The translations under genes and the position numbers were made by a program. The notes beneath the pieces are model-generated. The model did not search any database, was not told the origin of the DNA, and worked only from the letters and a program-made list of their open reading frames with translations. Shown here one piece after another: positions 2,595-23,771 of a stretch of 23,771 bases of DNA. This DNA comes from a virus (taxonomy: Duplodnaviria > Heunggongvirae > Uroviricota > Caudoviricetes): the IMG/VR virus record IMGVR_UViG_2671180577_000029; one strand, given 5' to 3'. Each line of letters opens with the position of its first letter. Positions within the stretch are counted from its first letter, which is position 1.

Positions 2595-2664
2595 TACTGC
2601 CGGTGTCGGCGGGATGGTTGAATCATCTGCCGAGCCAGCCCATTTTCATCAAAAACAGGTTTCA

Positions 2665-3948
2665 TTATTTAGCCCTCACCAGAAAGTTAAATGCAATATT
2701 TCGCGGTCTGACAGCAACAAAATTCACACCATCACCCACAGAGTTACTGGTGAAATTAAATCGTGAAAATCCTGGCTGATTTCCGGCGATGCCATCATGA
2801 AAGTTAATTGCGTGTCCCGCACCTCCGCCTATATTCCCGGCAAACTGAGAAAAGTTTGTAGCTTCCTGCCAGCTTAATAATTCGCGACCACCGTCTGCAC
2901 CTCGCCCGTCATCCCAGATACGAATGAAATCACCGCGGGCTTCAGGTAATACCAGCGAAGGAAATACTTTCGCCAGCACAGGATAATCAGTGGCAGAGAA
3001 TTTCGCGCCGTTGAACTTCAAAAACACCATACTGGACCAGCTGTCGATTACAGTATTTGGCATTGCAGCGGACGGCCAGAAGAACGGAACGCCAATAGCT
3101 GGAGAACCTTCTCCCAAACCAAGGTATGCGAGAAGACCGGCAACATCCTTTCCACTCAAATGAGTCAGCGTATTGTCCAGCGGTTGTTTACCTGCCAGCG
3201 CATTGTTAATGGTGGTGCTGAATTTCGGGTCATTGTTAATGGCTGCGGCAATTTCTTTCAGTGTGTCCAGCGTGGCAGGCGCACCATTAATCAGAGCGGT
3301 AATAGCAGCCTGTACAAACGCAGTGGTCGCAATCCGCGTGGTGTTATTTCCTGCATCAGGAGTCGGCGCTTTTGGTTCTCCGGTAAATGTCGGATTATGT
3401 TTCTGTGCATACTGGGTATGAGGATCCTGTGCGGCAATGTGGTTTCTCATCTGGTCATCCACATACAGCCTTAATTCCAGGACTTCATCATCCACGTATT
3501 TACGGGTCGCCAGTACCACCGACGGGTCGATTTTCAGCGTAATAGCTTCGGTATTCGTGACAACCAGAATCATGCGGATAGTCTGGGTACGACCGCTGCC
3601 TTCCTGTAACTGCGGTTTGTACGTTTCCGGGCAGTTCGCCACCGCAATGAGTACGCCTTCATCATCATAAAGCCCAATCTCACGGATCCAGAATCCACCC
3701 TCGTTCTCAGGGATGATTTGCTCCGCAATAATCTGGCTCTGGTTGTTCGGGTCAACACTCAGAAGATTCAGCGGCGCGATGCGTTTCTGGTTAATCAGTT
3801 TTGTCTGTGCCGGGTCTGGTGTCGGCAAGACACCATTCGCATCACCAACGGCCATTTGCGTCAGATTCAGCTTACTGCCAAGCATCGTCGCGTTAGCCAG
3901 CCGTGCTGCGCCCTGATTAGTCAGAATGGCGTAGTATTTCACTGTCAT
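2665..3948 (-). CDS. H: Tail fiber protein (P2 gpH-like), proximal copy, Glu at residue 362
   Basis: 427-aa ORF identical to 153..1436 except Glu instead of Ala at residue 362 (codon 2865..2863 GAA versus GCA). Confidence 0.85.
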   Translation of the reverse strand: MTVKYYAILTNQGAARLANATMLGSKLNLTQMAVGDANGVLPTPDPAQTKLINQKRIAPLNLLSVDPNNQSQIIAEQIIPENEGGFWIREIGLYDDEGVLIAVANCPETYKPQLQEGSGRTQTIRMILVVTNTEAITLKIDPSVVLATRKYVDDEVLELRLYVDDQMRNHIAAQDPHTQYAQKHNPTFTGEPKAPTPDAGNNTTRIATTAFVQAAITALINGAPATLDTLKEIAAAINNDPKFSTTINNALAGKQPLDNTLTHLSGKDVAGLLAYLGLGEGSPAIGVPFFWPSAAMPNTVIDSWSSMVFLKFNGAKFSATDYPVLAKVFPSLVLPEARGDFIRIWDDGRGADGGRELLSWQEATNFSQFAGNIGGGAGHAINFHDGIAGNQPGFSRFNFTSNSVGDGVNFVAVRPRNIAFNFLVRAK

Positions 3949-4556
3949 GCGTTTACTCTCAGGTTATCAATTAAATGAATGGCCGAGGCCGGGAAATAAT
4001 CCCCTCCGACAATAATGGCCTCCGGGGTGTAGGGATAAACTGTCAGGGCGTCGCCGTGATAGCATCCCGCACCGGCAAAAATGTTGCCGGTTGTACTTAA
4101 ACTGATAGCCAGTCCCGTCAGATGGCGGCTTGCCGGTTTTGCATCAGCAACGAGGCGCTCCAGCTCCTGATACATTTCCTCGGTAATACCCTGCTCAAGC
4201 ACGCCAACAACGATACGGAACGTCCCCGGCTCCTCATTGAGTTGCCACCACTCCCTCACCTCAATCAGATAGCCGAGCGGCTCCACCACACGCCGGATTG
4301 CGCCTATAGTGCCCTTATGGCAGTGAATGAAATACGCATCGCGGATAACAGCGCGTTTTGTCGCTTCCGCCCACTTATCATCCCAGCGGTCAACCGAAAA
4401 TGACCACGCCAGCCACGGCAGCAGATTTGCCGGGCAGGTGTCCGGGTTCCACAGCTCACGAATACTGACCGGCGTTTTTTCAATTTCCGCACAGGCTTTT
4501 GCAGCAGCGACTTCAAGCGGTGATGAGCCGGTCGGCAGCAGGCGCAAATCACTCAT
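3945..4556 (-). CDS. I: Baseplate assembly protein I (P2 gpI-like)
   Basis: 203-aa ORF with N-terminus MSDLRLLPTGSSPLEVAAAKAC; lies between J and H as in P2. Confidence 0.9.
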   Translation of the reverse strand: MSDLRLLPTGSSPLEVAAAKACAEIEKTPVSIRELWNPDTCPANLLPWLAWSFSVDRWDDKWAEATKRAVIRDAYFIHCHKGTIGAIRRVVEPLGYLIEVREWWQLNEEPGTFRIVVGVLEQGITEEMYQELERLVADAKPASRHLTGLAISLSTTGNIFAGAGCYHGDALTVYPYTPEAIIVGGDYFPASAIHLIDNLRVNA

Positions 4557-5457
4557 CCGAGCCTCCGGTCACGACGCGGTATTCGGTACAGAAAGACGCC
4601 TGCGTACTGTTGAGCACGATGTCGACCAGTGGTGAAGCCAGTTCAACACGCTGCACGCCTTCCACATGCAAAGCGGCATAAATGGCAGACAGACGGATGT
4701 CACGCCCCAGCCGGTGCTGTGCCGTGATGTACGCTTCCAGTTTTTTCACGGCGGCAGCGCGTATGGGTTCGCTTTCGGGACCAGGGTAAAGGTAAAGCGT
4801 GGCGTTTATCTGGTATTCAACAATGGCGGCAGACTGCACGGTCACGCGGTCGGCCACCGGTCTGACGTCCTCGCCATTAAGGGCGTTACGCACCACGGCC
4901 AGCAGGTCTTCGGATGCGACACCATTATTTTCACGTGACAGCACAGAGATGGTGACGCAGGCCGGAGACGGACTGGTGACAGAAATATCGGCGACACGCC
5001 CGTCGGCACTGCGACCATGATACTGATAGGCTCCCACCGACCCGGCGACGCTTAAGCCCTCAAACGCCTGCTGAATACGCAGCCGATAATCGGTGTCAGA
5101 TTCCATTACTGCCGGTGTCGGCGGGATGGTTGAATCATCTGCCGGGGTGATAATCAGGCGTGTGGTGTTGTAATTGGCACCAATCACATCAAGGTCATTA
5201 CCGGCTGCACAGGCCAGCATCACCGCCCGTGCAGCCTCATTCACACGCTGACGCCAGATAAGCTCACGATAAGCATTTTCCTCCAGCAGTTTGACGAGAG
5301 GCTCAGATTCCAGTGTCAGGGTACGGGCGACCGCCTCCTGCTGGTCTTCCGGGTAAAGGGAAATCAGTGTCGCCTTGCGTTCGGCAAGAATGGTTTCAAA
5401 GTCCAGCTCCTCGACCACATCCGGTGCGGGTAGCTGGTTCAGGTCGATAATCGGCAT
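4549..5457 (-). CDS. J: Baseplate assembly protein J (P2 gpJ-like)
   Basis: 302-aa ORF, the same length as P2 gpJ; follows W and precedes I. Confidence 0.9.
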   Translation of the reverse strand: MPIIDLNQLPAPDVVEELDFETILAERKATLISLYPEDQQEAVARTLTLESEPLVKLLEENAYRELIWRQRVNEAARAVMLACAAGNDLDVIGANYNTTRLIITPADDSTIPPTPAVMESDTDYRLRIQQAFEGLSVAGSVGAYQYHGRSADGRVADISVTSPSPACVTISVLSRENNGVASEDLLAVVRNALNGEDVRPVADRVTVQSAAIVEYQINATLYLYPGPESEPIRAAAVKKLEAYITAQHRLGRDIRLSAIYAALHVEGVQRVELASPLVDIVLNSTQASFCTEYRVVTGGSDE

Positions 5458-10721: not shown

Positions 10722-11795
10722 TTACGCTCCCGGCTCTGCGGTCGCCTTAGCCGGTGTGGAGAAATCACCGACCTTAATTTTTTCCACCAGACAACCGGCG
10801 GCGTAGTCTTCCACCACGTAATCAATGTTCATTGACTCGTAGTTCTCCACTCGGTCGAGTTTCGGGTTTTCCTCAATCACGCGGCGATGGCTGTCATCCA
10901 TGTAGTAGATGGACAGGTTTTCCAGCTTCGTGATGAGCATCGCATCCGCCGGGAAGTACGGGACGCGTACCGCCGGCAGGTTACCGATGCGTTTCTGGCT
11001 GATGATGACGTCAGCGGCCAGCATTTCGCTGTTGTCCTGCTCCTTGTTGACGATGGGGAAATATTTGTCCGCCAGCAGCTGACGCCCCACAATCACCACA
11101 AGGTCAGGGTCTTCCTGATACCACGGCTCAATCAGGTTGTTGGTCGCATCCATCACCAGTGCATCGAGGCTGGCATAATCACCGCTCTTACCCACGCGGA
11201 TGACCTCAGAGGTGGTGTGCCCTTCCTCGTCAGTGACCTTGCTCATCACGCGCGCCGGGGCTTCATTGCGGTATTTCTGCAGCCAGCCGACCGCCACATC
11301 CTGCAGCATCGGATTGCTGCTGCGGTCAGAGGTTTCGGCACGCCTCACGCCGTTAAAACCGGCCATGATGAAATCAAGGGACTGGCGTTTGATAATGGCG
11401 TTACGGACACGGAGCTGGAAATCCTGATAACGCGCCCACAGGTCCAGCGTTTTGTAGCGGATATAAAAATCGAAGTTAATCTGGTCGCATTCGTACTTGT
11501 TTGACGCCAGCTTCGAGAAGTCCTTCGGCTGACGCTCGGTGCCACCGGCGGTGTCGGTGGTGCTGGCGATGGAGCCGGTGACACCGATGCCAATTTTTTC
11601 CCCTTTCATTTCGCTGACCGGCACAATGTTGATGCGGGTCAGAAAGTCAGAGGACTCCTGCATGGTGTTCATCAGGGTCTGGGTGACCGACGGTTCAACG
11701 GTGAATTTTTTCGACACATCACCGGCGTCGATGCCGTTCAGTTCGGCAACACGGGACAGGTAAGCATTAAATTTAAAGCGGGTTTCCTGGCGCAT
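10722..11795 (-). CDS. N: Major capsid protein N
   Basis: 357-aa ORF, same length as P2 gpN, beginning MRQETRFKFNAYLSRVAELNG. Confidence 0.92.
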   Translation of the reverse strand: MRQETRFKFNAYLSRVAELNGIDAGDVSKKFTVEPSVTQTLMNTMQESSDFLTRINIVPVSEMKGEKIGIGVTGSIASTTDTAGGTERQPKDFSKLASNKYECDQINFDFYIRYKTLDLWARYQDFQLRVRNAIIKRQSLDFIMAGFNGVRRAETSDRSSNPMLQDVAVGWLQKYRNEAPARVMSKVTDEEGHTTSEVIRVGKSGDYASLDALVMDATNNLIEPWYQEDPDLVVIVGRQLLADKYFPIVNKEQDNSEMLAADVIISQKRIGNLPAVRVPYFPADAMLITKLENLSIYYMDDSHRRVIEENPKLDRVENYESMNIDYVVEDYAAGCLVEKIKVGDFSTPAKATAEPGA

Positions 11796-11853
11796 AGTTT
11801 TTCCTGAAATTAAGGGTTAATCGTGAAGGTTTTCCCGGACTGACTGACGCCGG

Positions 11854-12708
11854 TCAGCAGTTCGTCATCAGGGCGTCACCGCCACCACCGGTGGCCTTGC
11901 TGCGGCGCTGCTGGGTCAGACTTTCGGTGTGGTCGAGACTGTTTTTCAGGCGGGTGAATGCCTGGCTGGTTTCATCCGCCCTGTCAGTCACCTCCTGCTT
12001 AAGTGCGGAAAAGGCGGTTTCCATCTCAGAGAGGCGCTGCTCAGTGGCGCTCAGTTTTTCCTGCACATGTTCAGCAACAGCGGTCACCGCTTCATGCACG
12101 TCATTCAGACGGGCGTCATCGCTGGCCTGTTTGCGGCCAAAAATGGATTTCACCTTTTCGGTCAGGGCGGTGAACACGGTTTCAGGCAGGTCTTCAAATT
12201 CCAGCTCAACAGGCGTTGCCACTGAAATCAGGTTTTCAGGGCTTAATTTGAAGCGGTTCAGGGGGTTGTGTTTTGCCGTGCGGCAGAATTCCAGGTATTC
12301 CGTGCCGAGGCTTGCCGGGTCATCGGTGACGGCCAGCCCCACCAGATAACATTTGCCGGTATTGGCAAAGTTCGGCTGAATTTCCATTGAGGTGTAGACT
12401 TTCTGCGCGGCCTTGTTCATCGCGATAAGGTCATCGGTCGGGGTGATTTTCGCAAACAGCGCCCATTTGCCTTTCAGCGCCGAATCGTCGTCAATCTTTT
12501 CGGCCTTCAGTTCGACCACATCGCCATAACGTTTAAAAATACCGTCAGGCAGGATGCCGCGCAGATGTTCCAGGTTAATGCGGCAACCGTAGACACGCGG
12601 GTCAAAGGTTTCAGCCATTTCCTGAATATCCTGCGCACTGATGACACGCCCGTCACAGGTGTCACCCTCAACGCCGATACGAAAGAATTTTGAGACTTTT
12701 TTTGCCAT
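11854..12708 (-). CDS. O: Capsid scaffolding protein O
   Basis: Start set at ATG 12708..12706 (MAKKVSKFFRIGVEGDTCDGR), giving 284 aa as in P2 gpO; the longer ORF-track start at 12774 is not supported. Confidence 0.88.
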   Translation of the reverse strand: MAKKVSKFFRIGVEGDTCDGRVISAQDIQEMAETFDPRVYGCRINLEHLRGILPDGIFKRYGDVVELKAEKIDDDSALKGKWALFAKITPTDDLIAMNKAAQKVYTSMEIQPNFANTGKCYLVGLAVTDDPASLGTEYLEFCRTAKHNPLNRFKLSPENLISVATPVELEFEDLPETVFTALTEKVKSIFGRKQASDDARLNDVHEAVTAVAEHVQEKLSATEQRLSEMETAFSALKQEVTDRADETSQAFTRLKNSLDHTESLTQQRRSKATGGGGDALMTNC

Positions 12709-12881
12709 TGTCAGGAGTCCTGAATAGTGATTAGAGGAGTCACATGTCGGCATCAGTTTCCCGACGATACGCATCCTCCGCCATCAGTCCCGGATGGCTT
12801 ATCACTGACACAACAGCACCTTAGCGAATCGCGGGGCGCGACTCAGTAGCCTTGCCGTGTATTCATCACGGCGAGGTATTC
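12709..12881. promoter_or_regulatory. Divergent late-promoter region between O (minus) and P (plus)
   Basis: 173-bp non-coding spacer between divergently oriented operons, as for the P2 late promoters PO and PP. I could not find a canonical TGT-N12-ACA activator dyad here, so elements are not mapped. Confidence 0.4.
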
Positions 12882-14654
12882 ATGACCATCACCACAGACA
12901 CCACTCTTTTACACGACCCGCGTCGTCAGGCGGCGCTGCTGTACTGGCAGGGGTTTTCCGTGCCGCAGATTGCCGCCATGTTGCAGATGAAACGCCCGAC
13001 GGTGCAGAGCTGGAAACAGCGCGACGGCTGGGACAGCGTTGCCCCCATCAGCCGTGTCGAAATGAGTCTGGAAGCGCGGCTGACCCAGCTCATCATCAAA
13101 CCGCAGAAAACCGGCGGTGACTTCAAGGAAATTGACCTGCTAGGACGCCAGATTGAACGACTGGCACGGGTCAACCGCTACAGTCAGACCGGCAACGAGG
13201 CAGACCTTAATCCGAACGTCGCTAACCGCAACAAAGGCGGGCGTCGCAAACCGAAAAAGAATTTTTTCAGTGACGAGGCCATCGAAAAGCTGGAGCAGAT
13301 TTTCTTTGAGCAGTCTTTCGACTATCAGTTGCACTGGTATCGCGCCGGGCTTGAGCACCGCATCCGCGATATCCTGAAATCCCGCCAGATTGGCGCAACG
13401 TTTTATTTTTCCCGCGAGGCGCTGCTGCGCGCCCTGAAAACCGGCCATAACCAGATTTTTCTGTCGGCCAGTAAAACGCAGGCGTATGTGTTCCGTGAAT
13501 ACATCATCGCCTTTGCCCGGCTGGTTGACGTTGACCTGACCGGTGACCCGATTGTCCTGGGCAATAACGGCGCAAAACTGATTTTTCTCGGCACCAACTC
13601 CAACACCGCACAGAGCCATAACGGCGACCTGTACGTCGACGAGATTTTCTGGATCCCGAATTTTCAGGTACTGCGTAAGGTGGCATCAGGTATGGCCTCA
13701 CAGAGTCACCTGCGTTCGACCTATTTCTCCACCCCGTCCACGCTGGCGCACGACGCCTACCCGTTCTGGTCGGGTGAACTGTTTAACCGGGGACGCGCCA
13801 GCGCCGCCGAACGCGTGGAAATCGACGTCAGTCATAACGCCCTTGCCGGTGGACTTCTCTGTGCGGACGGCCAGTGGCGGCAGATTGTCACCATTGAGGA
13901 CGCCCTGAAAGGCGGCTGCACGCTGTTCGACATTGAGCAGCTCAAACGCGAAAACAGCGCCGACGATTTTAAAAACCTGTTCATGTGTGAATTTGTTGAC
14001 GACAAGGCGTCGGTGTTCCCGTTCGAGGAGCTGCAACGCTGCATGGTCGACACGCTGGAAGAATGGGAAGACTATGCGCCGTTTGCCGCGAATCCGTTCG
14101 GCTCCCGCCCGGTATGGATTGGTTACGACCCGTCACACCGTGGCGACAGCGCCGGATGCGTGGTACTGGCACCGCCGGTGGTGGCCGGTGGCAAATTCAG
14201 AATACTTGAGCGTCACCAGTGGAAAGGCATGGACTTTGCCACTCAGGCTGAATCCATCCGCAAACTCACCGAGAAATACAACGTCGAATACATCGGTATT
14301 GATGCCACCGGCCTCGGTGTCGGCGTGTTCCAGCTCGTGCGCTCGTTCTATCCCGCCGCACGCGACATCCGCTACACGCCGGAAATGAAAACCGCAATGG
14401 TGCTCAAGGCCAAAGACGTTATCCGCCGTGGCTGTCTGGAATATGACGTCAGCGCCACCGACATCACCAGCTCGTTTATGGCTATCCGCAAGACCATGAC
14501 CAGCAGCGGACGCAGTGCCACCTATGAGGCCAGCCGCAGCGAGGAAGCCAGCCACGCCGACCTCGCCTGGGCGACCATGCACGCCCTGTTAAATGAGCCA
14601 CTCACCGCCGGTATCAGCACCCCGCTGACATCCACCATTCTGGAGTTTTACTGA
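12882..14654 (+). CDS. P: Terminase ATPase (large) subunit P
   Basis: Start set at ATG 12882 (MTITTDTTLLHDPRRQAALLY) with GAGG 5 nt upstream, giving 590 aa as in P2 gpP. Confidence 0.92.
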   Translation: MTITTDTTLLHDPRRQAALLYWQGFSVPQIAAMLQMKRPTVQSWKQRDGWDSVAPISRVEMSLEARLTQLIIKPQKTGGDFKEIDLLGRQIERLARVNRYSQTGNEADLNPNVANRNKGGRRKPKKNFFSDEAIEKLEQIFFEQSFDYQLHWYRAGLEHRIRDILKSRQIGATFYFSREALLRALKTGHNQIFLSASKTQAYVFREYIIAFARLVDVDLTGDPIVLGNNGAKLIFLGTNSNTAQSHNGDLYVDEIFWIPNFQVLRKVASGMASQSHLRSTYFSTPSTLAHDAYPFWSGELFNRGRASAAERVEIDVSHNALAGGLLCADGQWRQIVTIEDALKGGCTLFDIEQLKRENSADDFKNLFMCEFVDDKASVFPFEELQRCMVDTLEEWEDYAPFAANPFGSRPVWIGYDPSHRGDSAGCVVLAPPVVAGGKFRILERHQWKGMDFATQAESIRKLTEKYNVEYIGIDATGLGVGVFQLVRSFYPAARDIRYTPEMKTAMVLKAKDVIRRGCLEYDVSATDITSSFMAIRKTMTSSGRSATYEASRSEEASHADLAWATMHALLNEPLTAGISTPLTSTILEFY

Positions 14655-15688
14655 TGAGCAAGAAAAAAGGGAAAACACCGCAACCTGCGGCAAAAAAAAT
14701 GACCGCCAGCGCCCCGAAAATGGAAGCATTCACCTTTGGTGAGCCGGTGCCGGTACTCGACCGCCGTGACATTCTGGATTACGTCGAGTGCATCAGTAAC
14801 GGCAGATGGTATGAGCCACCGGTCAGCTTTACTGGTCTGGCAAAAAGCCTGCGTGCTGCCGTGCATCACAGCTCACCAATTTACGTCAAACGCAATATTC
14901 TGGCCTCGACATTTATCCCGCATCCGTGGCTTTCTCAGCAGGATTTCAGCCGCTTTGTGCTGGATTTTCTGGTGTTCGGTAATGCGTTTCTGGAAAAGCG
15001 TTACAGCACTACCGGTAAGGTCATCAGACTGGAAACCTCACCGGCAAAATATACCCGCCGTGGGGTGGAGGAGGATGTTTACTGGTGGGTGCCGTCCTTC
15101 AACGAGCCGACACCTTTCACGCCCGGCTCCGTGTTTCACCTGCTGGAGCCGGATATTAATCAGGAGCTGTACGGCCTGCCGGAATATCTCAGCGCCCTTA
15201 ACTCTGCCTGGCTGAATGAGTCGGCCACGCTGTTCCGCCGCAAGTATTACGAAAACGGCGCACATGCCGGATACATCATGTACGTCACTGATGCCGTGCA
15301 GGATCGCAACGATATCGAAATGCTTCGCGAAAACATGGTTAAGTCGAAAGGCCGCAATAACTTTAAAAATCTGTTTCTCTATGCCCCACAGGGGAAAGCC
15401 GACGGCATTAAAATTATCCCGCTCAGTGAAGTGGCAACGAAGGACGATTTTTTTAATATCAAAAAAGCCAGCGCCGCTGACCTGCTGGACGCGCACCGCA
15501 TCCCCTTTCAGTTGATGGGGGGCAAGCCGGAGAACGTCGGGTCGCTGGGTGATATTGAGAAAGTGGCAAAGGTCTTTGTCCGCAATGAGCTTATCCCGTT
15601 ACAGGACAGGATCCGCGAGATAAACGGCTGGCTCGGTCAGGAGGTCATCCGCTTTAAAAACTACTCACTGGACACTGACAACGGCTGA
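14654..15688 (+). CDS. Q: Portal protein Q
   Basis: 344-aa ORF, same length as P2 gpQ; start overlaps the P stop (TGATG). Confidence 0.92.
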   Translation: MSKKKGKTPQPAAKKMTASAPKMEAFTFGEPVPVLDRRDILDYVECISNGRWYEPPVSFTGLAKSLRAAVHHSSPIYVKRNILASTFIPHPWLSQQDFSRFVLDFLVFGNAFLEKRYSTTGKVIRLETSPAKYTRRGVEEDVYWWVPSFNEPTPFTPGSVFHLLEPDINQELYGLPEYLSALNSAWLNESATLFRRKYYENGAHAGYIMYVTDAVQDRNDIEMLRENMVKSKGRNNFKNLFLYAPQGKADGIKIIPLSEVATKDDFFNIKKASAADLLDAHRIPFQLMGGKPENVGSLGDIEKVAKVFVRNELIPLQDRIREINGWLGQEVIRFKNYSLDTDNG

Positions 15689-15857: not shown

Positions 15858-15876
15858 GTGCTTTCCCCGCCTCGCC
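15858..15876. other. cos cohesive-end site (19 nt)
   Basis: Plus strand reads GTGCTTTCCCCGCCTCGCC, the reverse complement of the P2 19-nt cohesive end GGCGAGGCGGGGAAAGCAC (recalled from the literature, not looked up); it lies about 170 bp past Q, as at the P2 left end. Confidence 0.8.
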
Positions 15877-16037
15877 CGCCCGCTTCATGGGGTGTTTTTA
15901 ATGCAGGTGCAATACCGCTTTTGAGCCACGCCCGTTCTGGCGGACGCACGGCCGGAACATGCAACTCCGGCACATGCAAAACCATGCACATATTGCACGC
16001 AGAAAGATAAATGCCAAAATACCTAAATCAACTTCCA

Positions 16038-17876
16038 TTAATCAGTCAGATAAGGTTCAACTTTATCTTCCCATACACTAAATAAAGGCAAACAAGTTAA
16101 ATAAAAGATAAAGACACAGGCAAAAACTGAAGTTGGTTGATAACAATGATTTACAGTATACCTGCCATGAGCCATCGTGTGTCTAATTGCAGCACCACCT
16201 TTCATATTGAACAATAAATCCATAGTCAATACATGATCACTCCCCAAAATACCTTCCATTTCACTCTTATAATTTGCAAGCATTTGAGATAGACTAGTAG
16301 CCTCCTCAAAAAGTGACACATCTATTTTCGTTGTTTCTTTTCTTCTTAATTCTAAAATCCATCTAATTGAATTCTCCAACTGCGGCAACAACAAATAACA
16401 GGCAGACACATAATCCCCCTGCCAAAGCTTAAGAAATCCTAAAGAAAATATTTCCGCATACCCAGGAGGAACAAATAGACTTTGTTGTGAGATTGGGTCA
16501 AATGTATTCTCATTTAATGAATACCTAGACAACACTCTTTGCCTAACAACTTCAAACTCACCATAAACATAAAACTGATGCTCAATATTACTAGTTCTTA
16601 AATAATTTACACAGGCATCATCTAGACTTATATCCCCAGCAGAATCTAAAGGTGGTTGCCTTGCCACAACGCGTCCTCTGTCATCATAAAAAACCGTATC
16701 ACTCACATTAACAAAAAAATATCTCTTAGCATCAGAGCGAGCTCTTTCCATAATCTCACTGGCACTTACAACCTTAAATCTAGAGATTAATTTTTTAATT
16801 ATTTCTGAGAAATTTAATTGATTATAAATATGCTCTTTCTGAGCGATAACATCACTAAGATCCATTGGTATTGCAAAGGAATACATTTCATCATTGATTT
16901 GATCTCGAATAGAATTTAATTCCTCTTTAATCTCTTTAATCCTTTCACTCATTCCACCAATCGCTCTAAATTCCCCAAGAGCAACTCTTAGCCAATGAGC
17001 CTTCAATGTTGGAGATGAAGACTGTTCAAATTGAGCCAATGTTATTTCTGTCGCTTTCATTTTGCACCTTCTTCCTTGCTCTTCCATATCATTTTTAACA
17101 TATAATTCAGACGCAAAATAAAACAATTTTTTCACAGCATCAAAATAAGAAGCTCCACAATGCTCATCAGCTATCTTTTCTGCATTCTTAGCCAATTGTA
17201 AGGGGCACAATAAATTATTCTTATAAAGAATTTCAGAAATTCTTAAAACACCGATAAATATACTAGAATCTATTAATATATGATATAGCCTTAACGTCGA
17301 GTCAACTATCCCTCCTTGCAGTTGTTTTTTCCTGCCAATAAGCATGCGCGATATTGTAATACCTCTATCCAAGCAGTCAACAACATCAAAAACATGGATG
17401 TCACCTGATTCCTTTTTTTCTAACAAAGTATCACAAGCATCATTAATCATTAGAGCATATGACTCTATTGCTTTATTAGCAGAATCTATATCCTTACGGT
17501 TATTTATCCATAAAACATCACACACCCTAGATATAATATAAGGGTTATCAGTATTTTCTTTAATACAAGTTAATATGGTTAAATAATTATCCTTGTAATC
17601 TGAAGGTCTATAACCTCGCTTAGGATAGAGAATGATTTTAGACTCAAAGTCGATAATATCACCAGACTTAGAAAATTTTAAACTAAATAACGAACGTAAT
17701 AAATAGCAAACCCTCCAAGAACTCACATCTTTTTTTTGCTTATAAAATGACAACAACTGAAAAAAATAAGATTCCATTTCAAAATAAGAATGGCTTCTTG
17801 GTGGTAACAATATACTGGCGTACTCACTTTTTTTAAAATCATCAACTGAAATAGAAAAAACATCGAACTCGCTCAT
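16038..17876 (-). CDS. Hypothetical 612-aa cargo protein of unknown family in the tin/old accessory locus; candidate defense or lysogenic-conversion protein
   Basis: Long intact ORF with strongly AT-rich composition (about 30% GC in sampled 60-nt stretches) against GC-rich phage flanks. AAAGGTGAGGA precedes the ATG. No Walker A motif seen. C-terminal RHTMAH (R565-H570) resembles a HEPN Rx4-6H motif, but this is weak evidence. Confidence 0.75.
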   Translation of the reverse strand: MSEFDVFSISVDDFKKSEYASILLPPRSHSYFEMESYFFQLLSFYKQKKDVSSWRVCYLLRSLFSLKFSKSGDIIDFESKIILYPKRGYRPSDYKDNYLTILTCIKENTDNPYIISRVCDVLWINNRKDIDSANKAIESYALMINDACDTLLEKKESGDIHVFDVVDCLDRGITISRMLIGRKKQLQGGIVDSTLRLYHILIDSSIFIGVLRISEILYKNNLLCPLQLAKNAEKIADEHCGASYFDAVKKLFYFASELYVKNDMEEQGRRCKMKATEITLAQFEQSSSPTLKAHWLRVALGEFRAIGGMSERIKEIKEELNSIRDQINDEMYSFAIPMDLSDVIAQKEHIYNQLNFSEIIKKLISRFKVVSASEIMERARSDAKRYFFVNVSDTVFYDDRGRVVARQPPLDSAGDISLDDACVNYLRTSNIEHQFYVYGEFEVVRQRVLSRYSLNENTFDPISQQSLFVPPGYAEIFSLGFLKLWQGDYVSACYLLLPQLENSIRWILELRRKETTKIDVSLFEEATSLSQMLANYKSEMEGILGSDHVLTMDLLFNMKGGAAIRHTMAHGRYTVNHCYQPTSVFACVFIFYLTCLPLFSVWEDKVEPYLTD

Positions 17877-17988
17877 TCCTCACCTTTAAAGCACTTAACA
17901 AACAACCATGGCAAACAATACCAAACTGCAAGTAACAACTAAATATATACAGTACGAAACTATCTAAGATCTCGTGAATTTTTGCCAT
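17842..17988 (-). CDS. Possible small hydrophobic ORF (48 aa) between A and the cargo gene
   Basis: ATG 17988..17986 overlaps the A stop (TAATG). Translation MAKIHEILDSFVLYIFSCYLQFGIVCHGCLLSALKVRNERVRCFFYFS contains one hydrophobic stretch. It overlaps the cargo gene start by 35 nt, and its ATG sits inside a candidate -10 element, so it may not be a real gene. Confidence 0.2.
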   Translation of the reverse strand: MAKIHEILDSFVLYIFSCYLQFGIVCHGCLLSALKVRNERVRCFFYFS

Positions 17989-18014
17989 TATATCCACTCC
18001 ATTACCGTTGAGAA
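17987..18014 (-). promoter_or_regulatory. Candidate sigma70 promoter for the cargo gene
   Basis: Minus strand reads TTCTCA (18014..18009), a 16-nt spacer, then TATAAT (17992..17987, a perfect -10) overlapping the A stop codon. Predicted start near 17980 would give a roughly 100-nt leader to the ATG at 17876. Confidence 0.35.
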
Positions 18015-20273
18015 TCCCGGCCACTCATCAGCGACCGGATACGTGAATTTTTTCCCGTCATAATTTACGGTCGCGCCACGCGCCAGCGCCTCAAGCTCCC
18101 ATCGCTGCGGCCTGATACCGTTCTGAGCAAGGTCAACACGGATACGGGTGATTTGCATTCGTTCCGACCGGGTCAGTCTGGCCGATGGCGCTATTTCATG
18201 CTGTTTTAACGGGCTTCCGTTTCTTTGCTGACGATTAGGTGTTCTCAGGCCGTGTTTTAATGCGCCCCTGAGCGCCCTCACGACCTCCGGCTCATTCCAT
18301 TCGATAACTCCGTCATCAACCAGATTAAGCACTGCTGCGGCGTGCTCAGAAGGTGTGGGAGCCGGTAACGAAGTATCACCACCGGTGAGCATTCCACAGT
18401 TATTGACAGGACTCCGAGGCGCGGCGATGCCGCTTTTTAAAGTCAAAGGCTCAACGACCGGCACTTTCGGAACAATGCGCCAGTCCGTCGTTCTGGTGAT
18501 ATGAATATGACGCGCGCCGAGATGCGGCGCGTAAATGCCGACCACTCTCTCGACTTCTTCCTCGTACTCGTTAACTTCATCCGACGGACTACGGGCGACC
18601 CTGACAGTCTGACAATCGCGCGGGACATTTGCCCCACCCTGCGCACTGATATACAACGCAAAATCGCCACTGTCTGCGGCAGCGCGTGCAGCCTCGACGC
18701 GTTCGTCAAACTCATCAGCAATGCTGACGCCGCGAGGCAATTTGCGTAGTTCACGGTAAGCCCCCATTGTCGGCAGACCAACCGTTTTAAATTGCGGGAT
18801 GCGCCACGTTGACGCCCATGCAGTAACAGCCGCGGCAGTATCTTTCAGAGGTCTGCCGGTATCGTTATCGAGCTGACCATCCAGTGCATAGCCGTCGATG
18901 TTTTTTGAGATGTATTTCGCGATATACCCCGCAGCACCGCCCCGATTAAGGTGTTTTGCCTGAAAACGGTTTCGCGCGGCTCCTCTTTCGTCGCCATCCT
19001 CTTTGAGCGCATAGCGACGCATGATTTCGATAATCTGGTTACGCTGGCGCGGATTACAAAAAAGCATCATATGCCAGTGCGGCGTTCCGTCGTGGTGTGG
19101 CTCGACGACACGCAAACCGTAGACCTGTAAATCATTATCCTTGAATGCCGTGCGCATCAGGCTCCAGATACGGCAGAGATAACGCTGCGCATCCTTTGGA
19201 TTAAATGCCTCATCGTTCCAGCCGTGATTTAGCTGGACGGTTTTACTTTCGCCTTTTCCAACCTGACGTGTCGGGTGATACTTTGACGGCGCGGTCAGCG
19301 TGATAAACATCCCCACATCACCCTCTGCTGCGGCGTAACGCTCAATACCGGCAATGGTGTTCATCAGCTCCATCCGGCGAATTTCAGGATTAGAAATACT
19401 GCCCATCACCTTACTGATAAGGTCGATGCGCTCGCCGGTTTCCCTGTTTTCGAGATCACACGATTTAAGAAATTCCAGATTTGCCTGGCGGCGTGCACGC
19501 ACATCACGAATGGCATGTTTACTGGCATAAGGAGAACGGTCTTTATTGACCTCCCCGACAGCAATCAGTAACGCCTCATGCCAGCGCATACGCTGGCCTT
19601 TAAGCTGACTAATCCACCACTCATCGTTAAACAGACGGGCAATGGCAGAATATGCCTGCCTCGTGGTCATCTGCCCTTTACGGTATTTTTTCCAGTAGAG
19701 AGGGGAAATATTGAAAGCTCGTGCAGCGCCAGCAACATGACCATACAGGTGAGCCTGTGCCTCATCCGTAAACAGCGATTCTTTCTCGCCATGCGCATCC
19801 ACCCAGGCATCGCAGAGTTCCTCATACATCATGAAAAGCTGCGATGAGATACGGGCGGCAAACTTTTTCAGCTCCTTGTCATTCATCCCCGGCAGACGCG
19901 CATAATGGTCACGCTCTGCCAGAAACAGCAACGACGCGTCGGTGTTCATTTCATGGCGCTGATTCACACGCTCAATGCGCGGCCATAAACGACGCTGAAA
20001 AGTGGATGTGAGAAAATAAAACCCGTGCACCGGGCTTTTATTGCGCCGGATGTAGTCATAGCGTGAAGTAAACAGCGAGCGCAAAAAGTAAGGCAGGCGG
20101 TTAATCGTGGATAAAACACCTTGCACCTGACGCATCTCGTCACGTGTAAGGGGTCTTTCGCGCCCGACGGCCTCGCGTGGCGCGTTCCATGCATAAGCAC
20201 CGGTAAACGCCTTACCGGTGCCTGCGGCAAATGCTGACGGAGGGACAAAACGCCCGGAGGCTTTAACGGCCAT
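17988..20273 (-). CDS. A: Replication initiation protein A (rolling-circle initiator)
   Basis: Start set at ATG 20273..20271 (MAVKASGRFVPPSAFAAGTGK), giving 761 aa as in P2 gpA; the longer ORF-track start at 20315 is a TTG and would overlap the upstream gene. Confidence 0.92.
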   Translation of the reverse strand: MAVKASGRFVPPSAFAAGTGKAFTGAYAWNAPREAVGRERPLTRDEMRQVQGVLSTINRLPYFLRSLFTSRYDYIRRNKSPVHGFYFLTSTFQRRLWPRIERVNQRHEMNTDASLLFLAERDHYARLPGMNDKELKKFAARISSQLFMMYEELCDAWVDAHGEKESLFTDEAQAHLYGHVAGAARAFNISPLYWKKYRKGQMTTRQAYSAIARLFNDEWWISQLKGQRMRWHEALLIAVGEVNKDRSPYASKHAIRDVRARRQANLEFLKSCDLENRETGERIDLISKVMGSISNPEIRRMELMNTIAGIERYAAAEGDVGMFITLTAPSKYHPTRQVGKGESKTVQLNHGWNDEAFNPKDAQRYLCRIWSLMRTAFKDNDLQVYGLRVVEPHHDGTPHWHMMLFCNPRQRNQIIEIMRRYALKEDGDERGAARNRFQAKHLNRGGAAGYIAKYISKNIDGYALDGQLDNDTGRPLKDTAAAVTAWASTWRIPQFKTVGLPTMGAYRELRKLPRGVSIADEFDERVEAARAAADSGDFALYISAQGGANVPRDCQTVRVARSPSDEVNEYEEEVERVVGIYAPHLGARHIHITRTTDWRIVPKVPVVEPLTLKSGIAAPRSPVNNCGMLTGGDTSLPAPTPSEHAAAVLNLVDDGVIEWNEPEVVRALRGALKHGLRTPNRQQRNGSPLKQHEIAPSARLTRSERMQITRIRVDLAQNGIRPQRWELEALARGATVNYDGKKFTYPVADEWPGFSTVMEWI

Positions 20274-20538
20274 ATGAGCCAAAAGCCTCTGAACAACGCT
20301 TGCTGAGTTGCTCAACCTGCGCGTTTAAATCAGCAAAAGACTTTGCGCTTCCGGTCAGAATATCGTGATGCATCAGGCCGGAAACGAGCTGGCTTAATTT
20401 CGGGTAATAACCAACCACCGACAGCCATTCCTGACCGGCGTTTTTACCGCTTTCCGCTCTCTTTTTCTCGTGGAGAATAAACTGAAAGCTGTCACTGGTA
20501 ACGACATAACGTTCGCCAATTTCGATACGAATACTCAT
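20263..20538 (-). CDS. Hypothetical protein (P2 orf83 position)
   Basis: 91-aa ORF immediately upstream of A; ATGA overlap with the preceding ORF. Confidence 0.6.
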   Translation of the reverse strand: MSIRIEIGERYVVTSDSFQFILHEKKRAESGKNAGQEWLSVVGYYPKLSQLVSGLMHHDILTGSAKSFADLNAQVEQLSKRCSEAFGSYGR

Positions 20539-22721: not shown

Positions 22722-22790
22722 CTCTATATAAAGATTACATTTTCACCATTTGCTACCAAGATGGTGAATACAGCGCCGGAGGGCTTTCTT

Positions 22791-23771
22791 ATGGCAATTA
22801 AGAAGCTCGATGATGGTCGCTATGAAGTGGACATTAGACCTCGCGGTCGCGACGGAAAACGCATCCGCAGGAAATTCGAAAGAAAAGCTGAAGCACTAGC
22901 ATTTGAGCGATACACAATCGCCAATGCCAGTCAGAAAGAATGGGGAGGCCAGCGAGCAGACCGCCGGACTTTGAGTGAGTTGCTGGACATCTGGTGGAAA
23001 TATCACGGGCAAAACCACGAGCATGGAACAAAAGAGTTTAATCATCTACTCAAAACCATCAGCGGCATAGGTGATATACCAGTGAGCAGGATGAGCAAAA
23101 GGGCTTTGATGGATTATCGTTCCATGCGACTACGTGATGGTATCAGTGCCTCAACGATAAACCGTGACATGTACAGATTATCCGGCATGTTCACAAAATT
23201 AATTCAATTGGATGAATTTTCCGGGCAACACCCAATTCACGGACTGCCGCCACTGGCGGAGGCCAACCCTGAAATGACGTTCCTGGAAAAAGCAGAAATC
23301 GAAAAACTGTTAAATGTTTTGGCTGGTGATGACTTACTTGTCGCGCTTTTATGTCTGAGCACTGGAGGAAGATGGACGGAAGTTGCCACGCTAAAACCAG
23401 CACAGATTACAAATTGCAGGGTTACCTTCCTGAAAACCAAAAACGGTAAAAAGCGAACCGTGCCGATTTCTGAGGAACTGGAGAAAAAAGTTAAAGAGGA
23501 GGCCAGCGCCAAATTATTCAAAGTTGATTATGAGAAATTTTGCGGGATTTTACGCAGAGTGAAACCTGATATACCACCCAATCAGGCAACCCACATCCTG
23601 CGGCATACATTCGCAAGCCATTTCATGATGAATGGGGGCAATATAATCGCACTGCAACAGATTCTGGGACATGCGAGCATTCAGCAGACGATGGCCTATG
23701 CGCACCTTGCGCCTGACTATCTGCAAAATGCCGTCGCTCTGAATCCACTAAAAGGCGGAGTGACGTTATAA
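22791..23771 (+). CDS. int: Tyrosine integrase (P2 Int-like)
   Basis: Start set at ATG 22791 (MAIKKLDDGRYEVDIRPRGRDGKRIRRKF) with GGAGGG upstream, giving 326 aa. C-terminus has the tyrosine-recombinase HxxR...Y region (HILRHTF...MAYAHL). Stop codon is the last three bases of the window. Confidence 0.9.
   Translation: MAIKKLDDGRYEVDIRPRGRDGKRIRRKFERKAEALAFERYTIANASQKEWGGQRADRRTLSELLDIWWKYHGQNHEHGTKEFNHLLKTISGIGDIPVSRMSKRALMDYRSMRLRDGISASTINRDMYRLSGMFTKLIQLDEFSGQHPIHGLPPLAEANPEMTFLEKAEIEKLLNVLAGDDLLVALLCLSTGGRWTEVATLKPAQITNCRVTFLKTKNGKKRTVPISEELEKKVKEEASAKLFKVDYEKFCGILRRVKPDIPPNQATHILRHTFASHFMMNGGNIIALQQILGHASIQQTMAYAHLAPDYLQNAVALNPLKGGVTL

Follow-up and report, generated by a model that had tools for sequence, protein, structure and literature searches.

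A C6orf70/DUF4209-type HEPN signature in a solenoid protein carried at the P2 prophage hotspot: a predicted RNase cargo

HEPN domains are recognised by Rx4-6H, by the polar residue (mostly N, D or H) that directly follows its arginine and by an Ex3[KR] motif on helix 2, and in their structures by an insert between helices 2 and 3, a motif placed at the end of a distorted helix 3 and a helix 2 that bears an acidic residue (Anantharaman et al., 2013; PMC3710099). In that survey DUF4209 (PF13910) is the C6orf70 family, listed as 'Bacteria > Eukaryotes', with a conserved Rx4-6H and predicted to be catalytically active, its bacterial members standing in conflict-related neighbourhoods that include restriction-modification (R-M) operons (PMC3710099). 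The P2 tin/old position between gpA and gpQ/cos is a hotspot of anti-phage systems, and two of its cargo types, system 55 (76 occurrences) and system 13 (193 occurrences), are labelled 'DUF4209' in Table S5B of the work that described it (Rousset et al., 2022; PMC9122126). Here we consider a stretch of 23,771 nt from a virus of the Caudoviricetes (IMG/VR record IMGVR_UViG_2671180577_000029; the whole stretch is called the window), in which the hotspot carries a gene for a protein of 612 residues; an earlier note, made from the sequence alone, had pointed to R565-H-T-M-A-H570 near its C-terminus as a possible active site of the HepT/Abi toxin type. We favour, with moderate confidence, the reading that this motif is the active-site signature of a C6orf70/DUF4209 HEPN ribonuclease (RNase) domain fused to a helical solenoid, encoded by a single-gene cargo of the P2 hotspot and acting by the mechanism proposed below.

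The open reading frame (ORF) translation bears out the reading of R565-H570 followed by G-R-Y, the codon of G571 lying at 16164-16166. With 34 R and 11 H the protein holds three Rx4-6H motifs against 1.83 expected, in good agreement with the earlier estimate of one or two by chance, and at least three occur in 26% of shuffles; by itself the count is not significant. One of the other two, RTSNIEH at residue 427, had already been pointed out, and RYTVNH at residue 572, immediately downstream of RHTMAH, had been left unlisted. Since the count is at chance level, it is conservation, which goes far beyond chance, that decides whether the motif is functional. The conservation values below come from 196 full-length members of the family, representing clusters at 50% or 90% identity, that were aligned with MAFFT. 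E501, R565 and H570 are the only positions out of 612 that are 100% invariant, and R565 and H570 are invariant also in 47 relatives spanning down to 17% identity. Position 566 is H in 167 sequences, N in 27 and D in two, and conservation is high at A569 (92%), G571 (97%), R505 (98%) and P498 (99%). All three features of the HEPN signature fit, as R565-H566-x2-A-H570 together with E501-x3-R505. The pattern R[HN]xx[AS]HG occurs in 49 of 52 relatives from IMG/VR viral contigs, and 48 of these 49 have PQxExxx[RK] upstream as well; the pattern used for the scan itself included this upstream element, so only the Rx4H count is unbiased. The two remaining Rx4-6H occurrences were rejected as active sites, position 427 being mostly Q or R and 433 mostly R in the relatives, and position 572 mostly K or L with 577 variable. 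The N-terminal 460 residues show neither another HEPN motif nor a conserved His in the alignment, and a further HEPN domain there was rejected on this ground. For mutagenesis the catalytic candidates are R565, H570 and E501; RTSNIEH and RYTVNH are decoys that need no attention.

The family to which the motif belongs emerges from profile searches. Pfam DUF7380 (PF24098) matches the N-terminal part of the protein with 93 bits (cut-off 27; E 2.5e-26), PADLOC PDC-S39 hidden Markov models (HMMs) match it over its full length (E 5.9e-73 for residues 8-599, and 1.6e-68; together residues 8-600), and a further match is to phrog_5183, of unknown function; an NCBIfam search with the protein gave no match. 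It accordingly bears several names, 'ORF612' of prophage P2-EC46, 'DUF7380 domain-containing protein' in RefSeq, PDC-S39 in PADLOC and phrog_5183. A second word-indexed homologue search, run with an alignment, gave the same seven proteins, and querying with a 28%-identical one (P0007) widened the set. At E <= 0.01, DUF4209 matches are found in 41 of the 47 full-length relatives (best 8e-20), and with the limit relaxed to a permissive E <= 5 in every one of 28 diverse C-terminal fragments of relatives (best 6e-21); the relatives are homologous to the 612-residue protein over their full length (E from 1e-69 to 0), and all 47 match both DUF7380 and PDC-S39. The weak DUF4209 match of the protein itself covers residues 500-587 and model positions 1-83 of 89, and it is clarified by the homologues, because these match DUF4209. 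An exhaustive profile search returned 3,719 cluster representatives at E <= 1e-3, and most of the 150 matches listed among them are about 600-640 residues long; the family is large, and its architecture is fixed, a solenoid followed by a HEPN domain. On this sequence evidence the protein is assigned to the C6orf70/DUF4209 HEPN family and not to HepT or Abi. The HEPN RNase type of the motif is supported by the invariant R565, H570 and E501 and by the DUF4209 relatives, and the likeness to HepT/Abi-type toxins drawn in the earlier note has to be corrected. The idea itself is not new: the family as a whole was predicted to be HEPN in a paper of 2013, a catalogue of 2022 already contains the P2-hotspot orthologue, and the novelty is low.

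The predicted fold agrees with this assignment. The full-length AlphaFold2 model, with a predicted local distance difference test score (pLDDT) of 89 and a predicted template modelling score (pTM) of 0.67, is nearly all helical, and DUF7380 and the middle region form a TPR-like helical solenoid of about 460 residues. Residues 455-612, modelled separately (pLDDT 92.9, pTM 0.88), form the four-helix bundle around R565 and H570 that structure prediction had been expected to reveal if the motif were of the HEPN type. Helix 1 covers residues 474-486 and helix 2, which holds E501 and R505, residues 489-510; there follow a beta-hairpin (516-526) and two short helices (529-544), then a distorted helix 3 (546-556, going on as 564-569) that ends in R565 to A569, with H570 and G571 opening the next loop, and finally helix 4, the long last helix. 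The model shows four helices in an up-and-down bundle, extra elements inserted between helices 2 and 3, and the motif where helix 3 ends. The placement of the motif in a C-terminal HEPN region is borne out by the model in this respect, and the extent has to be corrected: with its hairpin and helical insert the domain begins at about residue 470 and reaches beyond the last 120 residues.

The HEPN structures listed for fold comparison (listed values in brackets) are Csm6 (6tug 7.3, 8jbc 6.9, 5yjc 6.3) and SsR10 (7.1), the minimal nucleotidyltransferase (MNT)-HEPN toxins 7ae2 (7.0), 5yep (6.9) and 8xdj (6.8), also TTHA0636, YutE and HI0074, AbiA (6.6) and the sacsin HEPN domain (6.4), with Roquin, RnlA, LsoA, Csx1, Las1, MtlR and nucleotidyltransferase helical domains lower in the list. 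Foldseek gave nothing significant with the HEPN-domain model, and against the PDB the full-length model matched only generic TPR and solenoid repeats of the IFIT5, OGT and LGN type, in agreement with the 'Fused to TPR' entry for the family in Table 1 of PMC3710099. PDB sequence searches with the protein, a C-terminal profile and a full-length profile detected no solved structure of any member, and bromodomain and HMG matches (E >= 0.02) were dismissed as noise. Taken together, we hold it very probable that the 612-residue protein has the HEPN fold and motif. In DUF7380, the charged and aromatic residues R87, D93, R117, D120, W123, Y140 and R171 are each conserved in 94-99% of the 196 sequences, a cluster that suggests a ligand-binding or second catalytic pocket, because it is unusual for a plain TPR-like scaffold.

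The genomic position of the gene is that of P2 tin/old, between replication gene A and the cos/portal gene Q, in a window whose PHROG matches identify it as a P2-like prophage (Table 1). The sequence GGCGAGGCGGGGAAAGCAC, which we take to be the P2 cos 19-mer, has a single exact match, at 15858..15876 (-), 161 nt past the cargo gene's stop codon. The 612-residue gene has the interval from gpA to cos/portal to itself, with no neighbour in the flanks of 350 nt and 111 nt, and the order of portal, cargo and gpA is the same in two E. coli genomes inspected. The GC content of the gene is about 0.33 vs about 0.55 in its flanks; ORF612 of prophage P2-EC46 (AM157366) is 92% identical to it in nucleotides, and the gene was found in 21 of 5,426 complete E. 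coli genomes. The region contains 10 sites that resemble promoters, not above chance (shuffle mean 7.8).

Table 1. Coordinates in the window of the cargo gene, its parts and motifs, and the prophage features around it (aa, residues of the 612-residue protein).
Feature	Position	Strand	Basis or remark
Cargo gene, 612 aa	16038..17876	(-)	ORF list and translation
DUF7380 domain, aa 8-184	17325..17855	(-)	Pfam PF24098
Middle all-alpha region, aa 185-469	16470..17324	(-)	AlphaFold2 model; one small beta-hairpin 394-407, D398 and G401 conserved
Predicted C-terminal HEPN domain, about aa 470-612	16041..16469	(-)	Conservation and model
R565-H-T-M-A-H570, Rx4H motif of the predicted HEPN domain	16167..16184	(-)	Conservation; end of helix 3 in model
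E501-N-S-I-R505, upstream Ex3[KR] motif on helix 2	16362..16376	(-)	Within conserved P498-Q-L-E-N-S-I-R
RTSNIEH, aa 427-433, chance Rx5H	16578..16598	(-)	Not conserved
RYTVNH, aa 572-577, chance Rx4H right after RHTMAH	16146..16163	(-)	Not conserved
Very hydrophobic last helix, aa 581-611	16044..16136	(-)	Hydropathy and model
Promoter-like site TTCTCA-16-TATAAT, 10/12	17987..18014	(-)	Consensus match only; about 110 nt upstream of ATG, at gpA end
Terminator-like hairpin and T-run	15983..15999	(-)	Consensus match only; about 40 nt past stop codon
P2 gpA-like replication nickase, left hotspot border	17988..20315	(-)	phrog_91; RefSeq 'replication endonuclease'
P2 gpQ-like portal, right hotspot border	14654..15688	(+)	phrog_68; RefSeq 'phage portal protein'
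Terminase large subunit	12852-14654	(+)	PHROG match
Scaffold and major head protein	within window		PHROG matches
Integrase	22761-23771	(+)	PHROG match

Other copies of the hotspot differ in content. In E. coli EH41 (L008 3455-4187) it holds two small hypothetical genes, of 156 and 89 residues, beside the DUF7380-HEPN gene, and in the P2-like prophage of a 52%-identical relative (L003 9849-10760) a 303-residue protein with no Pfam match; none of these is in the window. In E. coli VE-V10-F (L007 2096-3117), whose cargo gene is 99.9% identical, RefSeq annotates as partial pseudogenes the small terminase subunit gpM and an 'oxidoreductase'-labelled gene upstream of the portal, and the capsid, scaffold and terminase block (10722-14654 in the window) appears deleted, so that this prophage copy is probably defective. 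Elsewhere in the window there is a tandem duplication of 2,512 nt (121-2632 and 2633-5144) with only five interior mismatches, which takes in a tail-fibre gene (153-1436 and 2665-3948), a gpI-like tail gene (1433-2044 and 3945-4556) and the 3' 185 codons of a baseplate J-like gene, 2037-2594 being a 5'-truncated copy of 4549-5457; either a recent, genuine event or an artefact of assembly could account for it.

More distant relatives are found in varied settings. One in Dickeya (L002 1058-5370) lies on an integrative and conjugative element (ICE) and adjoins a four-gene CBASS (SMODS/ThiF/JAB/SAVED), CcdAB and ArdC; one in Sphingomonas (L004 32-4728) lies between QatABCD and genes for an MmeI-type enzyme, T5orf172 and a helicase; one in Dyella is in an island beside an integrase and smpB; and the 52%-identical relative is again between gpA and portal, in a P2-like remnant. 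A conserved partner gene was rejected, the neighbours differing in every context examined, and because no neighbour is conserved across contexts the 612-residue protein most likely acts alone. The Dickeya CBASS and Sphingomonas QatABCD loci would be useful for guilt-by-association statistics.

On this basis we propose that the lysogen would express the 612-residue protein, whose putative HEPN site, to judge from conservation and the model, would consist of R565, H566 and H570 with E501 and R505. As elsewhere in the superfamily, HEPN domains would probably have to pair first, and RNA cleavage would be metal-free and leave 2',3'-cyclic phosphate ends. The architecture and the genomic context suggest that the N-terminal solenoid may keep the nuclease off until a cue from an infecting phage is sensed, and the position of the gene and the candidate status of PDC-S39 in PADLOC suggest that RNA cleavage would then arrest the infected cell and exclude the competing phage, as do tin/old at the same locus. 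The protein is most likely a sensor-gated abortive-infection RNase, a function that we infer. The confidence differs between the parts of this proposal: that the HEPN domain has RNase activity is likely, whereas for a defence role of the protein the balance tips only slightly in favour. More tentative, and in our judgement somewhat short of an even chance, is a working model of single-protein abortive infection in which the charged DUF7380 cluster (R87, D93, R117, D120, R171) would sense a phage product or small ligand and switch on the DUF4209 HEPN RNase.

Several other explanations were weighed against a HEPN RNase in the C-terminal domain. If RHTMAH were a chance Rx4H in a helical protein of another kind, one would find what was indeed found for the protein taken singly, a motif count no higher than chance, no significant Foldseek match for the HEPN-domain model and a DUF4209 match of its own below threshold; the invariance in 196 relatives and the DUF4209 matches in 28 of 28 C-terminal fragments effectively refute this reading, to which we attach almost no weight. 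The domain might instead keep the HEPN fold and lack catalysis, serving as an RNA- or ligand-binding or oligomerisation module like the HEPN domains of nucleotidyltransferases and MtlR, but little or no variation is seen among the 196 sequences in Ex3R, in R and its polar neighbour or in H, and the family is predicted active (PMC3710099), which makes such a role improbable. The last helix raises a different issue. Its hydropathy is high (Kyte-Doolittle 19-residue mean 2.17 for residues 583-601), a transmembrane (TM) predictor would probably call it transmembrane, the paralogue of system 13 is marked '1 TM' in Table S5B (PMC9122126) and C6orf70 is described as a single-TM protein of the endoplasmic reticulum (ER) membrane (PMC3710099), all of which would suit a membrane anchor at residues 583-601 in place of helix 4 of the bundle, and with it a membrane-tethered RNase or a membrane effector. 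The AlphaFold2 models bury this helix in the HEPN bundle as helix 4, at block-mean pLDDT values of 92-97 for residues 581-610 in the full-length model and 94-98 in the C-terminal one (model residues 127-150); we consider an anchor more doubtful still than a non-catalytic module, and TM annotations in the DUF4209 family, possibly including that of ERMARD, may be misread core helices.

The strongest competitor, though an unlikely one, accepts the HEPN RNase and denies it an anti-phage role: it would serve prophage or host otherwise, for example as a toxin in addiction or stress, or as a nuclease that processes RNA or regulates. The only relative that has been tested, the E. coli S88 version of system 13 cloned as pFR103 'Putative HEPN', is outside the validated defence systems; the P2 hotspot also holds cargo with other roles, partition systems and cytolethal distending toxin among it (PMC9122126), PDC-S39 is a candidate class only, and eukaryotic C6orf70 relatives are predicted to be housekeeping or ER RNases (PMC3710099). 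On the other side, the distant relatives recur by CBASS, Qat and R-M genes, on phages and ICEs, and the gene sits in the tin/old slot, its low GC content and its presence in few E. coli genomes fitting a mobile defence gene.

The reading that we favour, a HEPN RNase with a defence role, has itself a number of observations against it. The remote-homology search succeeded through the relatives, whereas the DUF4209 score of the protein itself, 13.9 bits vs a gathering cut-off of 22.3 (E 0.059, C-terminal 160 residues alone), falls short. There is no antitoxin or partner gene to explain how a constitutive RNase would be tolerated. The validated systems of Table S2A do not include construct pFR103, which is placed in Table S2B ('additional tested systems'), and three of eight P2-hotspot systems were active on the panel of eight phages (PMC9122126). 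A literature search gave no report of RNase activity for DUF4209 or ERMARD, nor any biochemistry or phenotype described for DUF4209, DUF7380, PDC-S39 or ERMARD as an RNase: queries on DUF7380, or on ERMARD with HEPN, found nothing, ERMARD with RNase gave clinical-genetics papers only, the available parts of papers that mention PDC-S39 held no functional data for it, and no report of phage protection by the 612-residue protein was found.

A guess from a short motif has turned into a well-supported assignment, in a family that recurs on phages, ICEs and defence islands and whose HEPN domain is common to the human gene ERMARD. If the tentative single-protein model holds, the family of human ERMARD/C6orf70 would for the first time have a member open to experiment, and with it a handle on the regulation of that family; should the P2 cargo show a defence phenotype, the PADLOC candidate PDC-S39 would be validated and the first functional data for DUF4209 obtained.

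Among described systems, HepT (DUF86) is a protein of about 130-140 residues, in contrast to the 612 residues and large N-terminal region found here; no MNT antitoxin gene adjoins the cargo gene, and there is no DUF86 or nucleotidyltransferase Pfam match. To the single-chain abortive-infection HEPN proteins RnlA/LsoA, AbiA (C-terminal HEPN) and Abi2/AbiD-F no relationship was found at the sequence level and the N-terminal domains are unlike; the cargo gene has no RnlB- or Dmd-type partner, and the Abi_2 Pfam model matched neither the protein nor 28 relatives at E <= 5-10. The full-length HMM match is to PADLOC PDC-S39, which is only a candidate class. The P2-hotspot cargo of Rousset et al. occupies the same locus between gpA and gpQ/cos: the sequence of system 55 starts as does that of P0002, which is 88% identical to the 612-residue protein, the tabulated allele thus differing by 12% from that in the window, and system 13 is a paralogue, 28% identical over 399 residues and of the same architecture; the paralogue alone was cloned, and is not among the validated systems. 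From the C6orf70 (ERMARD)/DUF4209 family as described the locus differs in that the E. coli/P2 subclade lies under the Pfam DUF4209 threshold and is annotated only as DUF7380, and in being a lone gene in a prophage hotspot, as opposed to the R-M operons of PMC3710099. What the 612-residue protein has in common with this family is relatives that carry PF13910, the combination of Rx4H with Ex3[KR] and the fusion to a TPR-like region.

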